DNA of 11,539 nt from an uncultured archaeon (lineage in GTDB: Archaea; Asgardarchaeota; Thorarchaeia; Thorarchaeales; Thorarchaeaceae), in contig CAZPWM010000102.1 in NCBI GenBank assembly GCA_964590575.1, forward strand, positions 1 to 11,539. The letters are read 5' to 3'. A model generated the notes under the pieces. The model was given only the letters and a program-made list of their open reading frames with translations. It searched no databases and was not told where the DNA came from. Shown here one piece after another: positions 1,049 through 10,465 of the stretch (the first letter of the stretch is position 1; each line of letters begins with the position of its first letter). The translations under genes and the position numbers were made by a program.

Positions 1049-1120
1049 AGGCTAAGGGCGGGGTTGGCTAACGGGACCTTTCCCGAACCGTGCATTGTTG
1101 AGCACCCTTTTCATTTTTCA
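1049..1120 (+). repeat. Cassette-boundary repeat copy R1 (type A)
   Basis: AGGCTAAGGGCGGGGTTGGCTAACGGGACCTTTCCCGAACCGTGCATTGTTGAGCACCCTTTTCATTTTTCA; 29-bp core 1056-1084 is identical to R2 and R4. Confidence 0.95.
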
Positions 1121-1147
1121 ACCACTCACCAGTATTCCATACAGGAG

Positions 1148-1176
1148 TTTATATATCTACATCTACATATGTAGAT
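1148..1176 (+). promoter_or_regulatory. TATA box plus palindromic operator candidate for the vapBC operon
   Basis: TTTATATA at 1148-1155, followed by the perfect 16-bp palindrome ATCTACATATGTAGAT at 1161-1176, just upstream of ATG 1188. Confidence 0.65.
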
Positions 1177-1187
1177 TGTGAACCACT

Positions 1188-1436
1188 ATGACATCAAAGA
1201 CGATCTCTGTTACAGAAGACGTTTACAACCTCCTCCGAAAGATGAGATTGCCTGGAGAGAGCTTTGGCGAAACCATCACTCGACTCTGTAGACTCAAAAC
1301 ATCTCTTTCTTTGCGTCTGTGGGCAGAATCATCTGATGGCTGGAGTGATTTGACACCTGATGAAGAAGCTAGGCTCGAAGGCACACTTGAAACGATACGC
1401 ACCACTCTGCGTCCTGAAGAGGTAGATCTCGATTGA
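1188..1436 (+). CDS. vapB: Archaeal VapB-family antitoxin
   Basis: N-terminus KTISVTEDVYNLL...GESFGETITRL is typical of archaeal VapB (DUF217-like) antitoxins; acidic C-terminus; stop overlaps the TTG start of the PIN gene. Confidence 0.85.
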   Translation: MTSKTISVTEDVYNLLRKMRLPGESFGETITRLCRLKTSLSLRLWAESSDGWSDLTPDEEARLEGTLETIRTTLRPEEVDLD

Positions 1437-1840
1437 CATTCCTTGACACCACATTCCTTGTGGATATTCTAAGAAAGGACAATGCGGCAATCTCATGGCT
1501 GAATGATATGGAAGAACAAGCGCTGTACACCTCCGAGATTAATGTTTTCGAACTCTACACAGGTCTCTTTAGAATCTCAGAGAGTTCTAAGACGAAGCTG
1601 AAGAAGAGGACCTTTGAGCTCGAACAGCTTCTCTCTCGGATGGAGGTTGTTTCCTTTGACCGGAACTCAGCCATTGAGTCCGCAAAAGTTCTCTCTCTTC
1701 TGATGAGCAGAGGTGAACCTATTGGTGCTCGTGACATCATGATTGCTGGCACAGCACTCTCTAGGGGAATAAAACGACTGGTGACTCGTAACATCCGAGA
1801 GTTTCAGAGGGTTCCAAGTTTGAACACTGAGTCCTACTAG
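1433..1840 (+). CDS. vapC: VapC-family PIN-domain ribonuclease toxin
   Basis: FLDTTFLVD, SEINVFEL, DIMIAGTA, LVTRNIREF PIN motifs; 135 aa; coupled to the antitoxin via a TTGA overlap. Confidence 0.93.
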   Translation: MTFLDTTFLVDILRKDNAAISWLNDMEEQALYTSEINVFELYTGLFRISESSKTKLKKRTFELEQLLSRMEVVSFDRNSAIESAKVLSLLMSRGEPIGARDIMIAGTALSRGIKRLVTRNIREFQRVPSLNTESY

Positions 1841-1916
1841 ATTTATGCGGTCCAAGAACCATCACTTTGGAGTCAAATGACATTTCAATTGTTCATCATC
1901 TGAGAAACCTAGGTGC

Positions 1917-1990
1917 AGGCTAAAGGGCGGGGTTGGCTAACGGGACCTTTCCCTAGCCGCTCACTGTTGGGCACCCTTTCTCTTTTGCAA
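1917..1990 (+). repeat. Cassette-boundary repeat copy R2 (type A)
   Basis: AGGCTAAAGGGCGGGGTTGGCTAACGGGACCTTTCCCTAGCCGCTCACTGTTGGGCACCCTTTCTCTTTTGCAA. Confidence 0.95.
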
Positions 1991-2038
1991 TTGATAATAC
2001 TGAGCAGAGTATACTCTATCTTTGAAGACATTTTGGTT

Positions 2039-2578
2039 TTACTTTGACCTTCGTCGATATCTAACTAGACCGAGCAAGAAGTTCAGCATTGGTACTCTCT
2101 TTCTGTACTCTAGGTACGATTGTCCAAATTTCTCTACATTCGACTTGTCCTCAGAGTATGAATAATACACCACAATGAAAAACGGTACAATGCCCAGAAG
2201 AATTGTAATCCAGTATTGGGAGATAAACATCATTGCGATGATGGCAATCAACCAGCCTAGATAGAGCGGGTGTCTTACAATGCCATAGATGCCAGTATCA
2301 ATTACTACTGTTGTGTTGACCCAGCTCTTTCCTTCAGGTATATTCCCTTTCTTTGAGAGATCAAATCGAGGAACGCTCATCATTATGAGTCCAAGTATTA
2401 ACAACAACCATCCTGTATAGAGAAAGATATCGATGGAATAGATATTGTAGTAAAGAAAGAAACATAAAATGATTTCTAAAACAAATAGAATTCCACTGAT
2501 GGTCGAGATGACAAGTTCAGCTTTTGTAGGTTCCCAGGCTCTCGTATTCTCTGGTACTCCAGACTCCGATTCAACCAC
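2039..2578 (-). CDS. Isoprenylcysteine carboxyl methyltransferase (ICMT/PEMT) family membrane protein
   Basis: TGIYGIVRHPLYLG and SED...KFGQSYLEYRKRVP motifs; TM helices; TGGTGA SD upstream of the GTG start. Confidence 0.88.
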   Translation of the reverse strand: MVESESGVPENTRAWEPTKAELVISTISGILFVLEIILCFFLYYNIYSIDIFLYTGWLLLILGLIMMSVPRFDLSKKGNIPEGKSWVNTTVVIDTGIYGIVRHPLYLGWLIAIIAMMFISQYWITILLGIVPFFIVVYYSYSEDKSNVEKFGQSYLEYRKRVPMLNFLLGLVRYRRRSK

Positions 2579-2762
2579 GATTCGTCACCAGCTACTCAAA
2601 GAGTCTACACGAAGGATGATATAAATTTCGCAACATCGTGGTAACACAGGATCCTATTCCTACTGGTACAGGCGAAGAGAATATAGAGCAAATCAGTAAC
2701 TGGACGAGGTTATAAGGGTGGCTAAAAGTTACTTACAACCCGGTAGCTTCAGGACTGTAACT

Positions 2763-3395
2763 ATGATAGACCTTGATGTTGTGACTATGTTGACAGAAAT
2801 TGAATTATTCCCCGCACTTGAAATTGGATGGTTCAATGGATGGACCCTCTTGCTAGTATTGTACTTGGCATATGGTGTCTTGCTCCTCGTTTTCCCCAAG
2901 CATGTGGTGAAAAGACTCTACGAGTATAACAGGTCTAGTTGGAGTAGAAGACATCGAGTTTTTTATGTGACCGAGAAACTGCTGCTCGTAGTCTATATGA
3001 TTCTAGTAGTACTTTCTCCACTCAAGACTGATTCCTTTATTTTCATTCCCGGGATTATTTTCTTCTCTTTTGGTCTGACTGGTTTTATCATCGCGCTATT
3101 CAACTTCAAAAACACTCCACTCAATCAGCCAGTTTCCAGAGGGCTCTATAGAATATCACGCCATCCTCAGATACTCATGTTGTTCATTGCAGGTAGTGGG
3201 ATTGGTATTTCTATAGGCTCATTGCTCGTACTATTCATCCAAATATTTACCGCATTCCTCGGTCGGTCCAGAGTTCTAGCAGAGGAACAATCTTGCTTGG
3301 AACAGTATGGTGACCTGTACCGCGATTACATGAAAAGTGTTCCACGGTATCTTTTCATCAAAACGCGTGTCGAGGGTGCCAACTCTCTTTACTGA
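2763..3395 (+). CDS. ICMT/PEMT family membrane methyltransferase
   Basis: GLYRISRHPQ and AEEQSCLEQYGDLYRDYMKSVPRY motifs; TM helices. Start uncertain (GTG 2718, ATG 2763 or ATG 2787). Confidence 0.85.
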   Translation: MIDLDVVTMLTEIELFPALEIGWFNGWTLLLVLYLAYGVLLLVFPKHVVKRLYEYNRSSWSRRHRVFYVTEKLLLVVYMILVVLSPLKTDSFIFIPGIIFFSFGLTGFIIALFNFKNTPLNQPVSRGLYRISRHPQILMLFIAGSGIGISIGSLLVLFIQIFTAFLGRSRVLAEEQSCLEQYGDLYRDYMKSVPRYLFIKTRVEGANSLY

Positions 3396-3463
3396 CTGTG
3401 CTGATGACACGTTTGAGTTCTTAGATTATAACCTCGAATATCACTAGATGGACAAGAAGTACG

Positions 3464-3534
3464 AGGCTGACGGGGTCGGGTGAACAGGGAACTTTCACAT
3501 TCCGCACATTGTTAAGCACCCTTTCTATTTTACA
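3464..3534 (+). repeat. Cassette-boundary repeat copy R3 (type B)
   Basis: AGGCTGACGGGGTCGGGTGAACAGGGAACTTTCACATTCCGCACATTGTTAAGCACCCTTTCTATTTTACA. Confidence 0.92.
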
Positions 3535-3603
3535 TCTGTCAATCATGAATGAGTAGACTCTCCGATTCCCCATAGCTGAGTCAATCAACTCAATTCCAAC
3601 GAG

Positions 3604-3630
3604 ATTATAAGTAATTATCAACATTATAAG
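3604..3630 (+). promoter_or_regulatory. TATA-like direct repeat upstream of the RelE-type TA operon
   Basis: ATTATAAG occurs twice (3604-3611, 3623-3630), immediately upstream of the antitoxin start. Confidence 0.4.
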
Positions 3631-3641
3631 CCATGATAGAC

Positions 3642-3830
3642 ATGGGCGAAACAACCACTATTCCATTAACAAAAGAAACTCGCGATCTCTTGAAGAGATA
3701 TGGTCAGAAGGGAGAGACCTATGACGAGTTGATACGCCGCCTTCTTCAGGTTTCGGAACAGGTGGAATTTGCCAGAAGGCAGAAACGAATACTCGAGGAA
3801 GAGGAGTTCGTTCCACTTGACCAAGTATAG
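3642..3830 (+). CDS. Small antitoxin (RHH-like) of a RelE-type TA pair
   Basis: MGETTTIPLTKETRDLLKRYGQKGETYDELIRRLL beta-strand/helix/helix pattern, acidic tail EEEEFVPLDQV, overlaps the toxin start. Alternative start 3633. Confidence 0.82.
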   Translation: MGETTTIPLTKETRDLLKRYGQKGETYDELIRRLLQVSEQVEFARRQKRILEEEEFVPLDQV

Positions 3831-4098
3831 AGTTCTGCTCTCCCAGACCGCAATTTCACAACTGAGTCTACTAAATGCAAAACAGAAAAAGAGAGTTAAA
3901 GAAGCATTAGGAAACCTTGAGGATGATCCCTTCAGAAGAAGATCTGGTTCAGACATCAAGAAACTTGTGACTCCGGATGAGCCGCCTTTATACAGACTTC
4001 GGATTGGGGATTATCGAGCTATTTACTTTGTCGTCAATTATGAGGTTAAAGTCACTGAAATAATTCATCGAAGTAAAGGATACAGATGGCTGGAGTAA
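3817..4098 (+). CDS. relE: RelE/ParE-family toxin
   Basis: TTG start at 3817 after GAGGAG gives MTKYRVLLSQTA...DIKKL...LYRLRIGDYRAIY...IIHRSKGY, which are classical RelE motifs. The ORF-track start at 3769 is probably too long. Confidence 0.9.
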   Translation: MTKYRVLLSQTAISQLSLLNAKQKKRVKEALGNLEDDPFRRRSGSDIKKLVTPDEPPLYRLRIGDYRAIYFVVNYEVKVTEIIHRSKGYRWLE

Positions 4099-4124
4099 AT
4101 CCATCTCAGATAGATACGAAGTAA

Positions 4125-4197
4125 AGACTACCGGGCGGGGTTGGCTAACGGGACCTTTCCCTAACCGTACATTGTTGAGCCCCCTTTCTCTTTTGCA
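4125..4197 (+). repeat. Cassette-boundary repeat copy R4 (type A)
   Basis: AGACTACCGGGCGGGGTTGGCTAACGGGACCTTTCCCTAACCGTACATTGTTGAGCCCCCTTTCTCTTTTGCA. Confidence 0.95.
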
Positions 4198-4272
4198 TAG
4201 TCTGTCAGATGGATCTATACTATCTTTGACTACTCCCAATATTACTAACAACCAAGAAATTGGGAAGATAGT

Positions 4273-4914
4273 TCAAGATTCTTTACAAACGCGTTTTGGA
4301 AAGAGCATGCCCACTTCTTTTTGATATTCTACATAATCTCTCCCAAATTGGTCGATCAATACATCTTCCTCAGCCTTGGCTGTTGGATAGATTCCGATTA
4401 TTACAAATAACAATGGAATCAAGAGCCAATATGTTGACAGAACAAGTGCTAACCCAAAAATTATGCAAACATACGAGAAATAGAGCGGGTGACGAACTAT
4501 TCTAAAAGGTCCCGTAGTGATCAAAAGGTGATTCTCTAATGCTCCTGACGGGGCTGGTCGCACATATTTTCCTGCAACAATAAGGACCCAGTTGTAAATA
4601 AATCCACCAATGTAGAAAAATGTGAGGCCAACTATTTGGATATAGATATCAAATTCAAATGTGAATGTCATGATACCAAAGACCGCATAGTACAAATTGA
4701 GAAATGAGAAGATGATACCGGATATCCAAAAGAACCACATAAACAAAATTCCACTTACAAAAATCAAGAATACTGGTTTGTTATATTTCGCCTTCCTAGA
4801 TTCTGTTTCTTCTTTCTTATCTCTATGAAATCCTCTCCAATAACGTATAGAAGGAATCGTCATTGTGACTAGGGGCAATGAAAGGAGTATTGCAGTCCAT
4901 AATTCAGGTAACAT
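4273..4914 (-). CDS. ICMT/PEMT family membrane methyltransferase
   Basis: LITTGPFRIVRHPLY and AEEDVLIDQFGRDYVEYQKEV motifs; AGGTGA SD upstream; start ATG 4914 or TTG 4917. Confidence 0.9.
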   Translation of the reverse strand: MLPELWTAILLSLPLVTMTIPSIRYWRGFHRDKKEETESRKAKYNKPVFLIFVSGILFMWFFWISGIIFSFLNLYYAVFGIMTFTFEFDIYIQIVGLTFFYIGGFIYNWVLIVAGKYVRPAPSGALENHLLITTGPFRIVRHPLYFSYVCIIFGLALVLSTYWLLIPLLFVIIGIYPTAKAEEDVLIDQFGRDYVEYQKEVGMLFPKRVCKES

Positions 4915-5034
4915 CAATAACTCACCTAGATTATATGCTCATACTATTTTCCCCGAGATTGCAATCCTGTCAACCCTGAAGATAAACTTGTGTATATTTC
5001 ATACCTTTCTCAGTGATTTTATACTGATACGTAA

Positions 5035-5104
5035 AGACTGACGGTGTCGGGTGAACATGGAACCACACCTCCCTCACCTGTTGAGCACCCTTTTCATTTT
5101 GCAA
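5035..5104 (+). repeat. Cassette-boundary repeat copy R5 (type B)
   Basis: AGACTGACGGTGTCGGGTGAACATGGAACCACACCTCCCTCACCTGTTGAGCACCCTTTTCATTTTGCAA. Confidence 0.92.
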
Positions 5105-5160
5105 TTACCTGAAATCGAAAGACCCATATTTAATTTCAATGAGCATTGAAACGTTGTGGT

Positions 5161-5694
5161 ATGATGTCTGTATCTGACACAATACGGTTCAAGATGATTT
5201 CTTTCATGCATGGGACCTTGTATCACTTTTTCGTTGACCCAGCGAAATTACTACACGATGCTGGACTCGAATTGGGTCAGACTGTTCTCGAAGTTGGCTT
5301 TGGTCCTGCTTTCTTTACCCTCCCTGCGGCAAGGATTGTGGGCAGCCACGGTCGCGTCTATGCGATTGATATCAACAGAATGGCTATCGAGAAGTTGAAA
5401 CAGAAGATTGAGGCTAGAAATATAGCAAATATAGAGGTTAAAATGGTTGACGCGAGTGATACCAAGCTTCCTCCTTCTTGTATTGATACCGCATTTCTTT
5501 TTGGTGTGATTCATGCATTTGACGATATAGATTCGGTAATGCAGGAGCTACATCGAGTCTTAAAGGATGGTGGTATTCTGTCTATTCAGAAAGGCCGATG
5601 GTCAAAGGAGAGAATTGTCGCAGCTACAACCAAAAACGGGCTGTTTAGTATCAGGAGCAGCAAAGGGAGAGTTCTCAGATTTCGAAAAACCTGA
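5161..5694 (+). CDS. Class I SAM-dependent methyltransferase (UbiE-like fold)
   Basis: Motif I VLEVGFGPAFF, VYAIDIN, VDAS, ELHRVLKDGGIL; ATG at 5161 preferred over TTG 5146. Confidence 0.88.
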   Translation: MMSVSDTIRFKMISFMHGTLYHFFVDPAKLLHDAGLELGQTVLEVGFGPAFFTLPAARIVGSHGRVYAIDINRMAIEKLKQKIEARNIANIEVKMVDASDTKLPPSCIDTAFLFGVIHAFDDIDSVMQELHRVLKDGGILSIQKGRWSKERIVAATTKNGLFSIRSSKGRVLRFRKT

Positions 5695-5837
5695 CATCGG
5701 TATCAACCTCTCATCCATTCATATCGCAAATCAACTCAAGTCCGGTCATATTAATTGCTTCTTCCTTGAGTGCTCTATTGAAGTAGAGAGAAGTAGAGAC
5801 AGCGGGAATCGTGGTGCAATCGATAGGTTGCCCCGAC

Positions 5838-5894
5838 GCCATGGCGGAAACTTGCCCTGGCAGTTCACTGTTGAGCACCCTTTCTCTTTTACAA
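5838..5894 (+). repeat. Cassette-boundary repeat copy R6 (divergent 5' half)
   Basis: GCCATGGCGGAAACTTGCCCTGGCAGTTCACTGTTGAGCACCCTTTCTCTTTTACAA; 3' half conserved, 5' half has a different sequence but is still self-complementary. Confidence 0.85.
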
Positions 5895-5974
5895 CAGCTT
5901 CTCAAAATAGTGCAATTACCTGAATTGAGATACAATTATTTTCATGAATGTCATTAAGACAATAGGTCAATGAT

Positions 5975-6556
5975 ATGGGTTCCACACTCTCACCTATCTT
6001 ATTCACAGATCGGCTTGTTATCCGTTCATATTGTCTAGGCGACGAGAACTGGTACTACAAAATGAGTCAGAGAAACCATGCACACTTAGAGAGATACGAA
6101 CTAGATAATCCAGCAATGGCAATCAAGACTGAAGAAGACGCTACGAAGATGATAGCTGATCTTGTAGACGAGTGGCAGAAGGGTACTCATCACTTCATGG
6201 GAGTATTCCTCAAAGAGTCTGAGCAGTTCGTTGCTCAGATTTACATTGGTCTTGTGAATCTAGATGTGCCTGAGTTTGGAATTGGTTATTTTTCAGACGT
6301 TGAACATGAGGGTAAAGGATACGTGACAGAGGCTGTAAGTACAGTAGTTAAGATGCTTTTTGAGAGCTTTCATGCTCATCGGATTCGTATTGAAACTGAT
6401 GATACTAATCTACGAAGCATACGCGTTGCAGAAAGATGCGGTTTTGTGAGGGAGGGTCACATTCGAGAGAACAAGAAAAACCCTGACGGAACCTATTCTG
6501 GTACTTTGTACTTTGGACTATTGAGAAGTGAGTTTCTACCAAATCGCTCTTGTTGA
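5975..6556 (+). CDS. GNAT N-acetyltransferase, RimJ/RimL family
   Basis: TDRLVIR, EFGIGY, EGKGYVTEAV, NLRSIRVAERCGFVREG, YFGLLRSEF motifs. Confidence 0.92.
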   Translation: MGSTLSPILFTDRLVIRSYCLGDENWYYKMSQRNHAHLERYELDNPAMAIKTEEDATKMIADLVDEWQKGTHHFMGVFLKESEQFVAQIYIGLVNLDVPEFGIGYFSDVEHEGKGYVTEAVSTVVKMLFESFHAHRIRIETDDTNLRSIRVAERCGFVREGHIRENKKNPDGTYSGTLYFGLLRSEFLPNRSC

Positions 6557-6575
6557 GCCACCCTTTCATTTTGCA
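6545..6575 (+). repeat. Cassette-boundary repeat copy R7 (3' half only)
   Basis: CGCTCTTGTTGAGCCACCCTTTCATTTTGCA; overlaps the stop codons of both flanking convergent genes. Confidence 0.8.
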
Positions 6576-7405
6576 GCTTCGACATTTTCCCTCTCAATCA
6601 ATTCACCTACAGTAGCCCAGAAATAGGATGGATTCTCTGTATGAAGTCCATGTCCTGCATTAGGTATAAAGAGAAGTGGGAGCCGTGCATTTCTCACAAG
6701 CTTCTCAGATGAGTAAATACCCCTATTCTTCTCTCCGAAGATGAAATAACAATCAAAATCACGATGCGCTAGCAGTCTTTTCAGCAAGTTTCCCTTTACG
6801 GAAATTGGTGCTAAGTCTTTGCTGGACGCCCATATTGTGAATGGCCCTGCTTTTCGAAATGAAGAAACAAATTCAATCATATGCTCCTCTTGAGAATCTC
6901 CTAGTATTTTACCACAAATCGATTCAAAATCTTGTTGGAATTCTGAGAAGGACATCTTAGCGAATATAGACGAAAAGAATGCATCACCTGCATCAAGATT
7001 TCCTTCTAGATACAACAGCAGCTTGATTTTGGAATGAGGTGCATCATGATGAGCTAATAGTTCAATCAGCGAAACTGCTATTGGCCCTCCCATAGAATGA
7101 GCCAGTACAGAGAGTTGCTTGACATGTTCTCTCTCAAGGATAGCAATCAGGTACTTAGCTTGTTGGTCCATGGTATATGCTTCTGATGCATTACTCTTGG
7201 ATGAGTCCCCGTGACCTAGAAGATCTGGAATAATCCATGAGAACCTATCCAATGAATAGGTAGTGAAGTGTTTGAGAAACCACTTGCGACTATCTCCTAG
7301 TCCATGGATATAGAGATTCATCATGGGTCGGAGTGAGTTCGTATGAGCGTAATATACTATGGTCCCGAAGTCAGTTTCAAGACTCTTTGTTACTAAGCTC
7401 GTCAT
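6566..7405 (-). CDS. Alpha/beta fold hydrolase
   Basis: YIHGLG oxyanion motif, PDLLGHGDS, nucleophile elbow AHSMGG, C-terminal IPNAGHGLH catalytic His. Confidence 0.92.
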   Translation of the reverse strand: MTSLVTKSLETDFGTIVYYAHTNSLRPMMNLYIHGLGDSRKWFLKHFTTYSLDRFSWIIPDLLGHGDSSKSNASEAYTMDQQAKYLIAILEREHVKQLSVLAHSMGGPIAVSLIELLAHHDAPHSKIKLLLYLEGNLDAGDAFFSSIFAKMSFSEFQQDFESICGKILGDSQEEHMIEFVSSFRKAGPFTIWASSKDLAPISVKGNLLKRLLAHRDFDCYFIFGEKNRGIYSSEKLVRNARLPLLFIPNAGHGLHTENPSYFWATVGELIERENVEAAK

Positions 7406-7458
7406 AGCGCGATAATAGTGGCTTACTACTCAATTGGCTTTTTCTCTCTGGGAACTAG

Positions 7459-7530
7459 GAACTGATGGGGTCGGGTTAACAGGGAGCTTTTCCCTTGCCT
7501 GAAACTGTTGAGCACCCTTTTCATTTTTAG
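7459..7530 (+). repeat. Cassette-boundary repeat copy R8 (type B)
   Basis: GAACTGATGGGGTCGGGTTAACAGGGAGCTTTTCCCTTGCCTGAAACTGTTGAGCACCCTTTTCATTTTTAG. Confidence 0.92.
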
Positions 7531-7649: not shown

Positions 7650-7672
7650 CTCTATAATAAGAAGTGTTGACA

Positions 7673-8173
7673 ATGGGAAGGAAAGGAACTGAAATAGTCA
7701 AAGCCAAGCTTGATGTCGATAATCTACTAAAACTACTAAACAAAGCATTTGCAGACGAGTGGTTAGCGTATTACCAGTACTGGGTTGGTGCAAAGATAGT
7801 CCAAGGGCCAATGAGAGGTCTCTTGGAGTCAGAACTAATGGAACATGCTGGTGATGAGCTTAGACACGCTGGGCTGCTGGTGGAGAGAATGATTCAGTTA
7901 GGTGGAACTCCTTTGATTAAGCCAGAGGATTGGTATAAGGAAACAAATTGTGGATATGAAACCCCATCAGATCCATCGGTTCGTGCGTTACTAGTCCAGA
8001 ATATCAAGGGAGAACAATGTGCAATAGAGGTCTATAACAAACTGGTTGAGATGACTGAGGGAAAGGATCCAATCACTCATAAGTTGGTTCTCGAGATTCT
8101 TGCAGATGAGGTTGAGCATGAAGAAGATCTTGAGGCTATTCTTGAGGATCTAAAAACACTTACCTCCAAGTAA
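7673..8173 (+). CDS. Ferritin-like protein, DPS-like (DPSL)/bacterioferritin-related
   Basis: Di-iron ligands ADEWLAYYQY, DELRHA, GEQCAI..Y, DEVEHEEDL; two cysteines (TNCGY, EQCA) as in DPSL 'thioferritin' proteins; ATG 7673 preferred over GTG 7664. Confidence 0.88.
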   Translation: MGRKGTEIVKAKLDVDNLLKLLNKAFADEWLAYYQYWVGAKIVQGPMRGLLESELMEHAGDELRHAGLLVERMIQLGGTPLIKPEDWYKETNCGYETPSDPSVRALLVQNIKGEQCAIEVYNKLVEMTEGKDPITHKLVLEILADEVEHEEDLEAILEDLKTLTSK

Positions 8174-8272
8174 GACTCAAAGAAACCTTAGGAATCCCGC
8201 TATCTATTTCCTAGTCAATCATTTAGTTGGCTTTCTATATATCATCCAAAAACTGACTAATTACGTTAGGTA

Positions 8273-9286
8273 TTAGAGGTGATGATTTCTTTTAACGCTC
8301 GTATTACTAAGTTCATAAAAAACATCATGTCCAACACGTCTTGTTTTGACGTATTCATTATTTTTTAGCTTATTCAATATGGAGATAACAATAGAAGACA
8401 TGACCCCCAACGAAATACAAATGTCGGAAATTCTACATGGTCTGCGTTTCAGAAGCTCCAATAATTCATGCTCAAGAACATGATGTGCTTTCCATTTCAC
8501 ATCCTTATTCCTAGCATCATGAATCCCATATATCCACAATCTCTCTGAACCAAGATGACCCTCAAGGTCCCGTCCAAACTCTAGTAGGGTTTTGTTTGGT
8601 ACCGGCTTGACTGTTCGTACAGCTGCAGGACGCCATGGTGTATAGATTTGAACGACATCGGGGTCCACTTCAATAATGCCATCTATAAGGGCTCTCCTTG
8701 GAGGGCCCTCCACATTCGTCAGACCGCTTGAATCTCTGAGTAACATGACCTCAAGTGCCAACATACCTTTCATTTCACTATGGATCTGTTTGATTCCATC
8801 TTGAATCTCATGAAGCTTGAATGTACCCTTCGCAGGACGGTTGATGCGTTTGAAAGTGTCCTCGTCCCCTGCATCATACTTTGCTGTTATAATATCAAAA
8901 TCCTTGATTCTTTTACGGACTTCTTTTCTCGGGAGTAAGGATGCATTTGTAAGAAGAACTATTGGCAATTCTTCTACAATATCACGGATTTCAGATTCAA
9001 TCAATCCGATATTCGGATTTAGAGTGGGTTCTCCAGTCCCTGAGAAAGTTAAAACATCAACAGTTTTCTGGTCCAATCTTTCTAGGGTCCTCTTAACATC
9101 CAGAATTATATCCTTGGTTGGTGGAATTTCATTCTGAACATCCTTCGGAGATGTTACATGTTTCTCAGTGAAACCAAGTTGACAATAAACGCAATTGAAG
9201 GTACACTTCTTTGGTGGTGTTGTTATGTCTACCCCCAAGGAACGTCCATAACGCCATGAGGCCACTGGACCATATGTGTATGTCAT
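8273..9286 (-). CDS. Radical SAM Fe-S oxidoreductase (COG0731-like) with probable C-terminal HTH-like extension
   Basis: YGPVASWRYGRSLGVD N-terminus, CTFNCVYC (CxxxCxxC), TFSGTGEPTL, LLTNASL; start MTYTY at 9286. Confidence 0.9.
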   Translation of the reverse strand: MTYTYGPVASWRYGRSLGVDITTPPKKCTFNCVYCQLGFTEKHVTSPKDVQNEIPPTKDIILDVKRTLERLDQKTVDVLTFSGTGEPTLNPNIGLIESEIRDIVEELPIVLLTNASLLPRKEVRKRIKDFDIITAKYDAGDEDTFKRINRPAKGTFKLHEIQDGIKQIHSEMKGMLALEVMLLRDSSGLTNVEGPPRRALIDGIIEVDPDVVQIYTPWRPAAVRTVKPVPNKTLLEFGRDLEGHLGSERLWIYGIHDARNKDVKWKAHHVLEHELLELLKRRPCRISDICISLGVMSSIVISILNKLKNNEYVKTRRVGHDVFYELSNTSVKRNHHL

Positions 9287-9328
9287 AGTTACACACATAC
9301 CTCTTCATTGTTCACATCTGTAGGCATC

Positions 9329-9616
9329 TCACTCCTGTTTTTGAATCTCTGACAAACGCTTCTCGACATTCTTTAGACTATCCTGAAGATTCCTGATTTG
9401 CTCTTCAAGAAGCCCTTTCTGACTCTGCAGAGCTTGCAGATCAGCACCTGTCGAAAATGCGGGGAATGCAGCGCCAACGCTTGGACGATATCCCATATAC
9501 CAACAAGAACCGCGTCCATAGAGCCAGCCGGGTCTCTCCCAAGGCGGTAAGTTTCTGAATGGCCCGTTTCCTGGCCATTGACCGCGACTGCCTGAGCGTC
9601 CATATCCTCCTCTCAC
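9329..9616 (-). CDS. DUF5320-like small protein (Gly/Arg-rich N-terminus, C-terminal coiled coil)
   Basis: GGAGGTGA SD before the GTG start; RGGYGRSGSRG N-terminus and LQALQSQKGLLEEQIRNLQDSLKNVEKRLSEI heptad coil; such proteins often neighbour Mrp/P-loop Fe-S genes. Confidence 0.7.
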   Translation of the reverse strand: MRGGYGRSGSRGQWPGNGPFRNLPPWERPGWLYGRGSCWYMGYRPSVGAAFPAFSTGADLQALQSQKGLLEEQIRNLQDSLKNVEKRLSEIQKQE

Positions 9617-9640
9617 TTATCTTCACCTCCTTCCTTCTTT

Positions 9641-10465
9641 TCACATCCCAATTTTATTGCTGAGCTGTTCAACAACTTGACCAAAAGCCTTGGCAGCCTT
9701 GGAGTCTGGATCCTCCACTACAAATGGAGTCCCTTTGTCAGAGAGGCTTATAATTCTAGGATCTAACGGCAAAGAGCCCAGATGATGAACTCCTAACTCA
9801 TCCGCCGCCTTCTGAGTCACTCCCTCCCCGAATAACTTGGTGGACTCTCCACAATGTGGACATACGTACTCACTCATATTTTCAATGATCCCTAAGATTG
9901 GTACTCCCATCCTCTGAACAAGCCGAATTGCTCTACGCGCATCAAGCACAGCCACCTCCTGCGGGGTTGATACAATAACAACACCATCAATCTCGGGAAT
10001 GGACTGGAGAATACTTAGGATTTCATCGCCTGTGCCAGGAGGAAGATCAACTATAATGATATCTAGCTCTCCCCACTTGACCTCGCTCAAGAACTGTTGA
10101 ATGGCTTTTCCAACAAGTGGTCCTCTCCACGCAACAGCATCATCAGCATTTTGAAGAAGAAATCCCATGCTCATCACTTTGAGATCAAGAGGACCTCTTA
10201 TCGGAATGATTGCATTATTCTCTACTTGAGGATGTTTTCCTTCTAATCCCAATAGTTTCGGCACATTTGGACCATAGATGTCAACATCAAGGATACCTGA
10301 TTTCAAACCCCTCTTTGCGAACGACACAGCCAAGTTCGTAGCAACTGTAGTCTTCCCAACTCCGCCTTTTCCTGAGAGTACAACAATCTTATGTTTCACA
10401 TCCTTCATATTCTCTCTAATTTCAGGAGAAACCATATCCTTAGCTTTTGAATCAGCTTTGGTCAT
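9641..10465 (-). CDS. mrp: Mrp/NBP35 (ApbC) family Fe-S cluster carrier ATPase
   Basis: VLSGKGGVGKTT, DVDIYGPN, WRGP, DLPPGTGD, VSTPQ, GIIENMS..CPHC motifs. Confidence 0.95.
   Translation of the reverse strand: MTKADSKAKDMVSPEIRENMKDVKHKIVVLSGKGGVGKTTVATNLAVSFAKRGLKSGILDVDIYGPNVPKLLGLEGKHPQVENNAIIPIRGPLDLKVMSMGFLLQNADDAVAWRGPLVGKAIQQFLSEVKWGELDIIIVDLPPGTGDEILSILQSIPEIDGVVIVSTPQEVAVLDARRAIRLVQRMGVPILGIIENMSEYVCPHCGESTKLFGEGVTQKAADELGVHHLGSLPLDPRIISLSDKGTPFVVEDPDSKAAKAFGQVVEQLSNKIGM

Follow-up and report, generated by a model that had tools for sequence, protein, structure and literature searches.

Accessory-gene cassettes in Candidatus Thorarchaeota are bounded by a repeat that matches the 3′ trailer of 16S rRNA

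Introduction

Several described systems provide the background for the locus reported here. In the additive islands of transfer RNA (tRNA) genes, a partial direct repeat of the 3′ part of the gene ends each insert, and cassettes are exchanged even between genera (PMC7771536). In the tycheposons of Prochlorococcus, inserts accumulate in tandem at the 3′ termini of tRNA and transfer-messenger RNA (tmRNA) genes (bioRxiv 10.1101/2020.12.28.424599). Clusters of attC sites without the integrase IntI (CALINs) have been reported in Asgard archaea (Ghaly et al. 2022, PMC9668308). In the maturation of archaeal 16S ribosomal RNA (rRNA), the splicing endonuclease cleaves the leader-trailer helix of the precursor at a bulge-helix-bulge motif (PMC7038931, PMC8339473). 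The element described here is a repeat that separates small groups of accessory genes in a stretch of 11,539 nucleotides (nt) from an uncultured archaeon of the Thorarchaeaceae, and it has features in common with each of these systems.

The window, by which we mean this whole stretch, is the entire contig C102 (GenBank CAZPWM010000102.1, forward strand) of genome G000 (GCA_964590575.1; 3.4 Mb, 194 contigs, 91% complete). A first-pass annotation of its sequence had described the repeat as a possible new class of attC-like recombination site. Each repeat almost certainly duplicates the 3′ trailer that belongs to the only 16S rRNA gene of the organism, consisting of the strand of the processing stem that pairs with the leader and of a T-rich tail. 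Below, contigs of G000 are designated C, other genomes G, and array-bearing loci L.

The Repeat and the 16S rRNA Gene

Copies were located by a repeat search and by an nhmmer profile built from the G000 copies. The window contains seven full copies and one right-half copy between positions 1049 and 7530, all on the + strand and spaced 663 to 1545 nt apart. A pattern of the right box has ten matches in the 3.4 Mb of G000, against none for the reversed control, which shows that the repeat did not arise by chance. Three further G000 copies, all on contig C137, bring the total to 11, of which those in the window are the distal eight. The left half of the repeat occurs in at least five sequence types across the copies of the family, of which types C, D and E are without an AAC box, and it is followed by the invariant right box CAY-TGTTGAGCACCC. 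The copies in the window are listed below, with the score of the nhmmer match and, where given, the leader-pairing energy difference (ddG).

1049 to 1123, + strand: trailer copy 4 of 11; type A left half, box CAT-TGTTGAGCACCC, T-rich tail; 69.7 bits; ddG −24.3 against a shuffled mean of −3.3.
1919 to 1992, + strand: trailer copy 5; type A, box TGTTGGGC; 68.9 bits; ddG −20.3; a metagenome contig joint and a loose end at 1955/1965.
3463 to 3537, + strand: trailer copy 6; type B, box TGTTAAGC; 65.5 bits; ddG −20.7; its upstream cargo is common to locus L006, where a type A copy follows instead.
4125 to 4199, + strand: trailer copy 7; type A; 68.2 bits; the trailer homology continues left to about 4103 and takes in a hairpin located after the 16S end.
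5032 to 5107, + strand: trailer copy 8; type B, degenerate left half; 60.3 bits.
5820 to 5897, + strand: trailer copy 9; type C left half with its own covarying hairpin and without an AAC box; 57.0 bits.
6550 to 6577, + strand: copy 10, right box only; the stop codon of a GNAT gene lies inside the box; nhmmer E=0.19.
7457 to 7530, + strand: trailer copy 11, the last of the array, adjoining the conserved flank; 65.4 bits.

The position of the array relative to the 16S rRNA gene was reconstructed from contig ends. The minus strand of C137 opens with the last 144 nt of archaeal 16S rRNA (Rfam), and the first repeat copy lies about 100 nt further on. The other end of C137 overlaps the start of the window by 70 nt with one mismatch, and the 3′ end of contig C73, which holds the rest of the 16S gene and the leader, overlaps the start of reverse-complemented C137 by 55 nt. 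From these overlaps the order of the locus is leader, 16S, 11 copies with their cassettes, and then a ferritin gene, a radical S-adenosylmethionine (SAM) gene and a further open reading frame (ORF); the two joins rest on the 55-nt and 70-nt overlaps, and every genome considered here is a metagenome-assembled genome (MAG). The ferritin and radical SAM flank is syntenic in two genomes of the same genus (L006, L007).

Comparable arrays are widespread in the family (Candidatus Thorarchaeota). Apart from G000, 36 of its genomes were searched and 24 contain the right-box pattern; outside the family, one of 24 genomes has a single match, with one mismatch. A scan of public genomes gave 36 matching stretches, which were assigned to Thorarchaeota (28), Promethearchaeota (4), uncultured archaeon (2) and bacteria (2, the chance level). 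Rfam located 16S rRNA in 5 of the 20 loci scanned, representing four genera, in each case directly upstream of the first copy and on the same strand. In G076, G077, G082, G084 and G093, the leader box lies about 1.7 to 1.8 kb from the first right box on one contig each. G075 had seemed to be an exception, with an array 203 kb from the leader on one contig; this contig is a scaffold with 100-N gaps, and the piece with the array opens with the 16S 3′ end immediately after a gap.

Some copies within the arrays carry part of the 16S gene itself. A match to the 16S 3′ terminus precedes 15 internal copies, one of which (L011) looks like a chance match. The other 14 extend to the left with 10 to about 75 nt of the 16S 3′ end in addition to the trailer; a partial direct repeat of the 3′ part of the gene thus closes these inserts, and the adjacency to 16S is confirmed. 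One such copy, in L013, carries a foreign 16S variant with a helix insertion. Because the 16S of its own host is without that insertion, the fragment is attributed to another lineage.

An insertion of about 30 nt lies in the 3′-terminal helix of 16S between GGATGG and ATCACCTCCT. It is present in G000, G029 and G028 (L001:6731-6790, L002, L014) and not in G030 and G017, and the inserted form appears as a foreign fragment within the array of G017. Separately, the 16S gene of G000 (C73:14685-15577; L059:2750-3589) contains an insertion of about 890 nt that codes for a 279-aa LAGLIDADG-type protein (PF14528, 6.8e-14) and is probably a homing-endonuclease intron.

Pairing with the 16S rRNA Leader

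The identity of the repeat is further supported by its complementarity to the 16S leader, which contains the exact complement of the right box. Perfect pairing between leader and trailer extends over 12 to 14 bp and is accompanied by further helices. In the predicted cofold of the G000 leader and trailer, trailer positions 61 to 124 are paired in an interrupted helix of about 55 bp that covers the whole repeat, including the GGCT box. Bulges are present in this single minimum-energy cofold, which is without the canonical 3-4-3 bulge-helix-bulge motif. For the eight G000 copies that were scored, the predicted energy of interaction with the leader lies between −8.2 and −24.3 kcal/mol; shuffled sequences average −3.3 and go no lower than −6.2.

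The complementarity is accompanied by compensatory changes. Where the leader ends in ..CAACAGTG, the right box reads TGTTGAGC in 52 of 54 copies from 20 genomes; where it ends in ..CAGCAGTG, the box reads TGCTGAGC in 22 of 25 copies from eight genomes; and a leader in ..CAATG corresponds to CAT ahead of the box in all nine copies from three genomes, these tallies having been made from pattern lists in which related genomes are not independent, although the G-type leader is found in three genera. Distal copies obey this rule as well as proximal ones. Of 20 pattern hits fetched as a check on the leaders, 17 are true leaders and three are not, one of the latter being a trailer copy read in reverse; 12 further A-type leaders were taken as exact pattern matches and were not checked individually. 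The true partner of the GTTGAGC box is therefore located in the 16S leader, about 2.5 kb or more upstream. Inserts in the array appear to retain a leader-compatible trailer and would thereby restore a functional 3′ end of 16S, as the complementarity and covariation predict in silico.

The fact that distal copies retain complementarity and covariation could also mean that they are kept for a role in RNA, such as leader pairing in read-through transcripts, termination or processing, with exchange as a side effect. The T-rich tail would suit such a role, as would a small hairpin of the GGGA/TCCC type, which is kept in other left-half types with an apparent compensating change, as judged by eye. 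However, the cargo lies on both strands, the copies furthest from 16S decay (the terminal copies in L006 and L007 are degenerate), and concerted evolution through gene conversion accounts for the covariation equally well. We consider retention for an RNA role improbable.

Comparison of the Repeat with attC Sites

The attC-like description in the first-pass annotation was based on an AAC box and a GTTRRRY box, said to be spaced too closely for an attC site and to be surrounded by conserved flanks. The right-hand box of this description is well supported, since GTTRRRY is found in all eight window copies and in 77 of the 88 family copies. Its proposed partners GGCTAAC, GGTGAAC and GGTTAAC occur in every full copy of the window except that at 5820 (six of seven) but in just 29 of the 88 family copies. 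The short spacing is confirmed, as the AAC box lies 23 to 26 nt ahead of GTT in the window copies, and so are the conserved outer flanks. It was also correct that these are not canonical attC sites, because L boxes and extrahelical bases are unidentifiable and the R'' box occurs at chance level.

The structural part of the description is not upheld. With z-scores measured against dinucleotide shuffles, ten copies folded as single-stranded DNA (ssDNA) on both strands gave values from −1.58 to +1.26, and the medians for the 88 family copies were −0.39 for the top and −0.37 for the bottom strand. The bulged arms that had been proposed to pair within the repeat fare no better, since the duplex of left arm and right box has a median z of −0.46 and reaches p≤0.05 in 10 of 88 copies.

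A short attC-like site that folds as ssDNA through its bulged AAC...GTTRRRY arms and is cut by a tyrosine recombinase is consequently a very unlikely explanation of the repeat. In its favour, besides the frequent GTTRRRY box, an AAC lies 15 to 40 nt upstream in 58 of 88 copies against 17.8 expected, the proposed arms can be seen by eye in the minimum-energy fold of about three of the seven window copies, and the cargo, with its toxin-antitoxin pairs and GNATs, resembles that of chromosomal integrons. Nevertheless, the copies fold no better than shuffled sequences on either strand, and left-half types C, D and E have no box at all. Only 7 of 88 copies have a strict RYYYAAC within 45 nt; widening the distance to 150 nt raises the number to 12, where 10.2 would be expected, and one copy of 88 has an exact complement of its own GTTRRRY. 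Where the box has changed from T to C, the compensating change lies in the leader and not in a local arm. No IntI was found, and merely 106 of 167 ORFs are co-oriented with the repeat. The surroundings also differ from an integron platform, in that the array starts at the 16S rRNA gene and the cassettes, one of which holds a divergent gene pair (2039-3395), are not co-oriented.

What stands of the earlier proposal is the association with recombination, while a folded single-strand substrate is unsupported. The term recombination-associated is fair because the repeat marks the boundaries of cassettes and because exchange between strains and genomes falls inside it.

An Rfam scan of the window returned nothing but a chance match to CPEB3 (E=0.16); to our knowledge, Rfam holds no attC model. 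A scan for tRNA and tmRNA genes found none, and one for bacterial promoters and terminators gave results at the level of shuffled sequence. A clustered regularly interspaced short palindromic repeat (CRISPR) array and a miniature inverted-repeat transposable element (MITE) were considered and rejected, as a spacing of 0.3 to 9.9 kb is unfit for them and the search for repeats gave no pair of inverted arms at any of the copies.

Cassettes and Their Cargo

The cassettes between copies hold one to four accessory genes. Measured from one copy to the next, 80 intervals range from 334 to 9,937 nt (median 1,476 nt); of their ORFs, 106 have the same orientation as the repeat and 61 the reverse. The cassettes of the window, and the chromosomal flank beyond them, are as follows.

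1 to 1048, + strand: cassette 3, continued from C137; C-terminus of a TauE-like membrane protein (2-556) and a rhodanese (594-1010; Pfam Rhodanese).
1188 to 1840, + strand: cassette of a VapB-like antitoxin (1188-1436; Pfam PF02697, 1.7e-9) and a PIN toxin (1433-1840; PF01850, 2.5e-17).
2039 to 3395, − strand (2039-2578) and + strand (2718-3395): cassette of two divergent ICMT/PEMT-like membrane methyltransferase genes (Pfam PF04191, PF04140).
3633 to 4098, + strand: cassette of a DUF7557 antitoxin-like gene and a ParE/RelE toxin (Pfam); recurs in six other loci beside different neighbours (blastn).
4273 to 4917, − strand: cassette of a third ICMT/PEMT-like membrane protein (Pfam PF04191, 1.8e-9).
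5146 to 5694, + strand: cassette of a SAM-dependent methyltransferase (Pfam PF13847, 3.2e-19).
5975 to 6556, + strand: cassette of a GNAT acetyltransferase (Pfam PF13302, 2.1e-19); recurs in L007 and L017 (blastn).
6566 to 7405, − strand: cassette of an alpha/beta hydrolase (Pfam PF00561); recurs in L009 and L007, and in L009 together with copy 11.
7664 to 10465, no strand assigned: distal chromosomal flank, outside the array; ferritin-like gene (7664-8173, Pfam), radical SAM gene (8273-9298, Pfam) and an ORF (9641-10465) that we take to encode an Mrp-type ATPase.

One array thus holds three ICMT/PEMT-like membrane methyltransferase paralogues (2039-2578 on the − strand, 2718-3395 on the + strand and 4273-4917 on the − strand), divided between two neighbouring cassettes. 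In the copy without a left half (window 6541-6577), the right box contains the TGA that terminates the GNAT gene (5975-6556). Because a full copy follows the same gene in L007, a deletion probably fused the end of the gene to the box.

In a census of the cargo (150 of 178 ORFs, non-redundant), 134 Pfam families were represented, among them PIN (14), GNAT (9) and methyltransferases (5). One of the first cassettes after 16S in G029 (L002:15239-17653) encodes a MerA-like mercuric reductase with an HMA domain and a MerB-like organomercurial lyase. The first cassette after 16S in L001 (5471-6541, + in L001) encodes a 356-aa protein that has two winged-helix/helix-turn-helix domains, no other recognised domain, and two glutamate-dehydrogenase-family genes adjoining it. 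A 580-aa ORF with a Cas12f1-like TNB domain, i.e., a TnpB-type RNA-guided nuclease, is found in large cassettes of two genomes (L009:11191-12933, L003:4674-6440); it is probably cargo or the remnant of an insertion sequence, and is a possible helper.

Exchange Points and the Proposed Mechanism

When pairs of copies from different genomes were compared, the upstream cargo was common to both in 26 pairs and the downstream cargo in 22, but both sides in only one. Cassettes therefore retain their identity and not their neighbours. Copies of T type occur inside arrays of C type, where they lie beside cargo that has relatives in genomes of T type. In most pairs, homology of the upstream cargo ends at positions −81 to −43, and homology of the downstream cargo starts at −54 to +6 in 8 of 14 pairs, so that exchange points are dispersed over about 90 nt, from −81 to +6. 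In the two cases that polymorphism resolved, the upstream junction follows TG(T/C)TGAGC, that is, it lies 3′ of the G|TT position that the first-pass annotation had named as the crossover point to be checked. In one instance, a type B left half is joined straight to TGCT.

A 245-nt mini-cassette with a type E copy (L019:9342-9587) is missing from a 92%-identical relative (L020:3036), and the right edge of this insertion or deletion is exactly CAT|TGCTGAG.

The right boundary of the repeat is fixed at the T-rich tail, and its left boundaries vary, reaching 10 to about 75 nt into the 16S gene. Both features could be produced if the copies were 5′-truncated retro-copies of the 3′ end of the pre-16S transcript. 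The cargo, however, includes divergent gene pairs with their intergenic regions and genes on both strands, no reverse transcriptase is among the top cargo families, and mosaic exchange points fall inside the unit. An origin of the copies by reverse transcription is extremely unlikely.

It seems reasonably likely that the array grows and is reshuffled by recombination between trailer copies, probably driven by homology, while 16S always keeps a working trailer. Trailer-carrying DNA, either from a relative or from the same array, would recombine with a resident copy by Campbell-type insertion, loop-out, replacement or gene conversion. The CAY-TGTTGAGCACCC box would be the commonest zone of exchange, because no other stretch that is the same in all partners is as long. 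The 16S gene would never lose its processing stem, because every insert would bring or regenerate a leader-compatible trailer. A homology-driven process is favoured because exchange points are dispersed, copies are mosaic, no enzyme was found and 16S ends of donor type are carried along; growth may proceed from the 16S side.

The serious rival, although we judge it rather unlikely, is a dedicated site-specific recombinase that would recognise the right box as double-stranded DNA and catalyse crossover within it. PF00589 might have missed this enzyme, or plasmids or viruses might provide it in trans. The remainder of the trailer would then be carried merely to keep 16S functional, as in tRNA-targeting islands. 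Such an enzyme would account for the fixed right end and variable left end of the repeat, for the existence of right-box-only junctions, and for the two informative cases, in which the shared unit starts after TG(T/C)TGAGC and ends at ..GAGCACCC. Against it, other exchange points fall at −43 to −81, the type B left half joined straight to TGCT does not fit, and homologous exchange between diverged partners would likewise favour the longest identical stretch.

The search for the enzyme itself gave no candidate. Neither the integron integrase (TIGR02249) nor PF00589 has a match in G000, so that the tyrosine recombinase expected by the first-pass annotation was not found in this genome. PF00589 is present in 16 of 41 genomes of the family, with 30 hits, none of them on a copy-bearing contig; it was not found in five array-bearing genomes (G000, G014, G017, G028, G035), one of which is 97% complete in about 20 contigs. 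Among the top 25 Pfam families of the 150 cargo ORFs there is no recombinase, and tyrosine recombinases are not recurrent in the cargo. Searches of the large cassettes for recombinases yielded the TnpB-like nuclease, peptidases and MerA/MerB, with no integrase. A search of viral contigs gave one chance match, within a coding region, and the longer repeat pattern was unmatched there.

Several observations weigh against homology-driven exchange, or limit the evidence for it. The right box is near-invariant and far better conserved than the cargo, which is 70 to 86% identical, and this could mean recognition by an enzyme. Right-box-only junctions (6550-6577) are poor substrates for homologous recombination, because the homologous stretch is only about 27 nt, and suit a site-specific enzyme better. 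Since all genomes are MAGs, a recombinase could sit on unassembled or mobile DNA. The identity of left halves is 0.64 in cargo-sharing pairs against 0.61 in the background; the left half travels with neither neighbouring cassette, and simple one-crossover models therefore need added gene conversion. In 8 of 11 arrays, copies score lower the further they lie from the 16S side, but this polarity is a weak trend, individually significant in three arrays and scored with a profile built from the G000 copies. Its own leader is the best partner for just three of four 16S-proximal trailers. No gain or loss event was seen within a single lineage.

All 32 loci found in metagenome contigs are arrays, and in four metagenome runs contigs break or join within repeats. 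Joints lead from 1955 to 5869, from 3496 to 5869 (both arriving in copy 9) and from 1989 to 3595, and foreign left halves adjoin 1965 and 5079, the latter in copy 8, where a contig of run X5 has another left half immediately 5′ of this position; these contigs are short unitigs, and the evidence of the joints is weak because their sides span only 22 to 33 nt. No excised circle was seen, and none of 24 whole metagenome contigs has terminal overlaps.

Significance and Comparison with Known Systems

If exchange between trailer copies takes place as proposed, the archaeal group closest to eukaryotes would have a means of exchanging genes without any known integrase, and the flux of accessory genes would be tied to an essential and highly conserved element of rRNA processing. 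The array behaves as an adaptive gene store, because its cargo has toxin-antitoxin pairs and, in a relative, mercury-resistance genes. Trailer arrays also offer a testable explanation for the breakage of 16S-bearing contigs in these MAGs. No description of cassette arrays on the 16S trailer was found in the literature, including the available text of PMC9668308, PMC11529989 and PMC7771536, which did not extend to supplementary tables. The supplementary tables of the archaeal-integron paper (PMC9668308) might list such loci as CALINs, and the question is raised whether some integrase-less attC clusters of Asgard archaea are in fact rRNA-trailer arrays.

Like the archaeal pre-16S processing stem, the locus has a 16S-proximal copy that is the trailer of that stem and pairs with the leader with covariation. 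Unlike the usual stem, it has ten further trailer copies downstream with protein genes between them, and the one cofold contains no canonical bulge-helix-bulge motif. The array resembles the islands anchored at tRNA and tmRNA genes in that inserts lie beside a structural RNA gene and each is closed by a partial repeat of the 3′ part of the gene. It differs from these islands in its target, which is the 3′ end of 16S rRNA together with the trailer of the processing stem, and in having no integrase in or beside the inserts. Moreover, it is family-wide, consists of 11 or more copies, and its copies co-vary with a distant leader.

In contrast to integrons, the array is without intI, attI and Pc, and its repeat, a piece of the rRNA operon, is without an attC fold, R'' box or L boxes; ORFs lie on both strands (106 against 61) and exchange points are dispersed. 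Like sedentary chromosomal integrons and CALINs, however, it is a same-sense array of short cassettes (median 1.48 kb) at one chromosomal locus, its cargo is rich in toxin-antitoxin pairs and acetyltransferases, and its cassettes are common across genera. The array might tentatively be regarded as an integrase-free counterpart of the integron in Thorarchaeota, a possibility that we hold with somewhat less than even confidence. The 16S trailer would serve as a portable landing pad of which each cassette carries a spare copy, and homology-anchored recombination would allow modules to be taken up, added in series from the 16S side and exchanged between genera, with rRNA maturation left intact.

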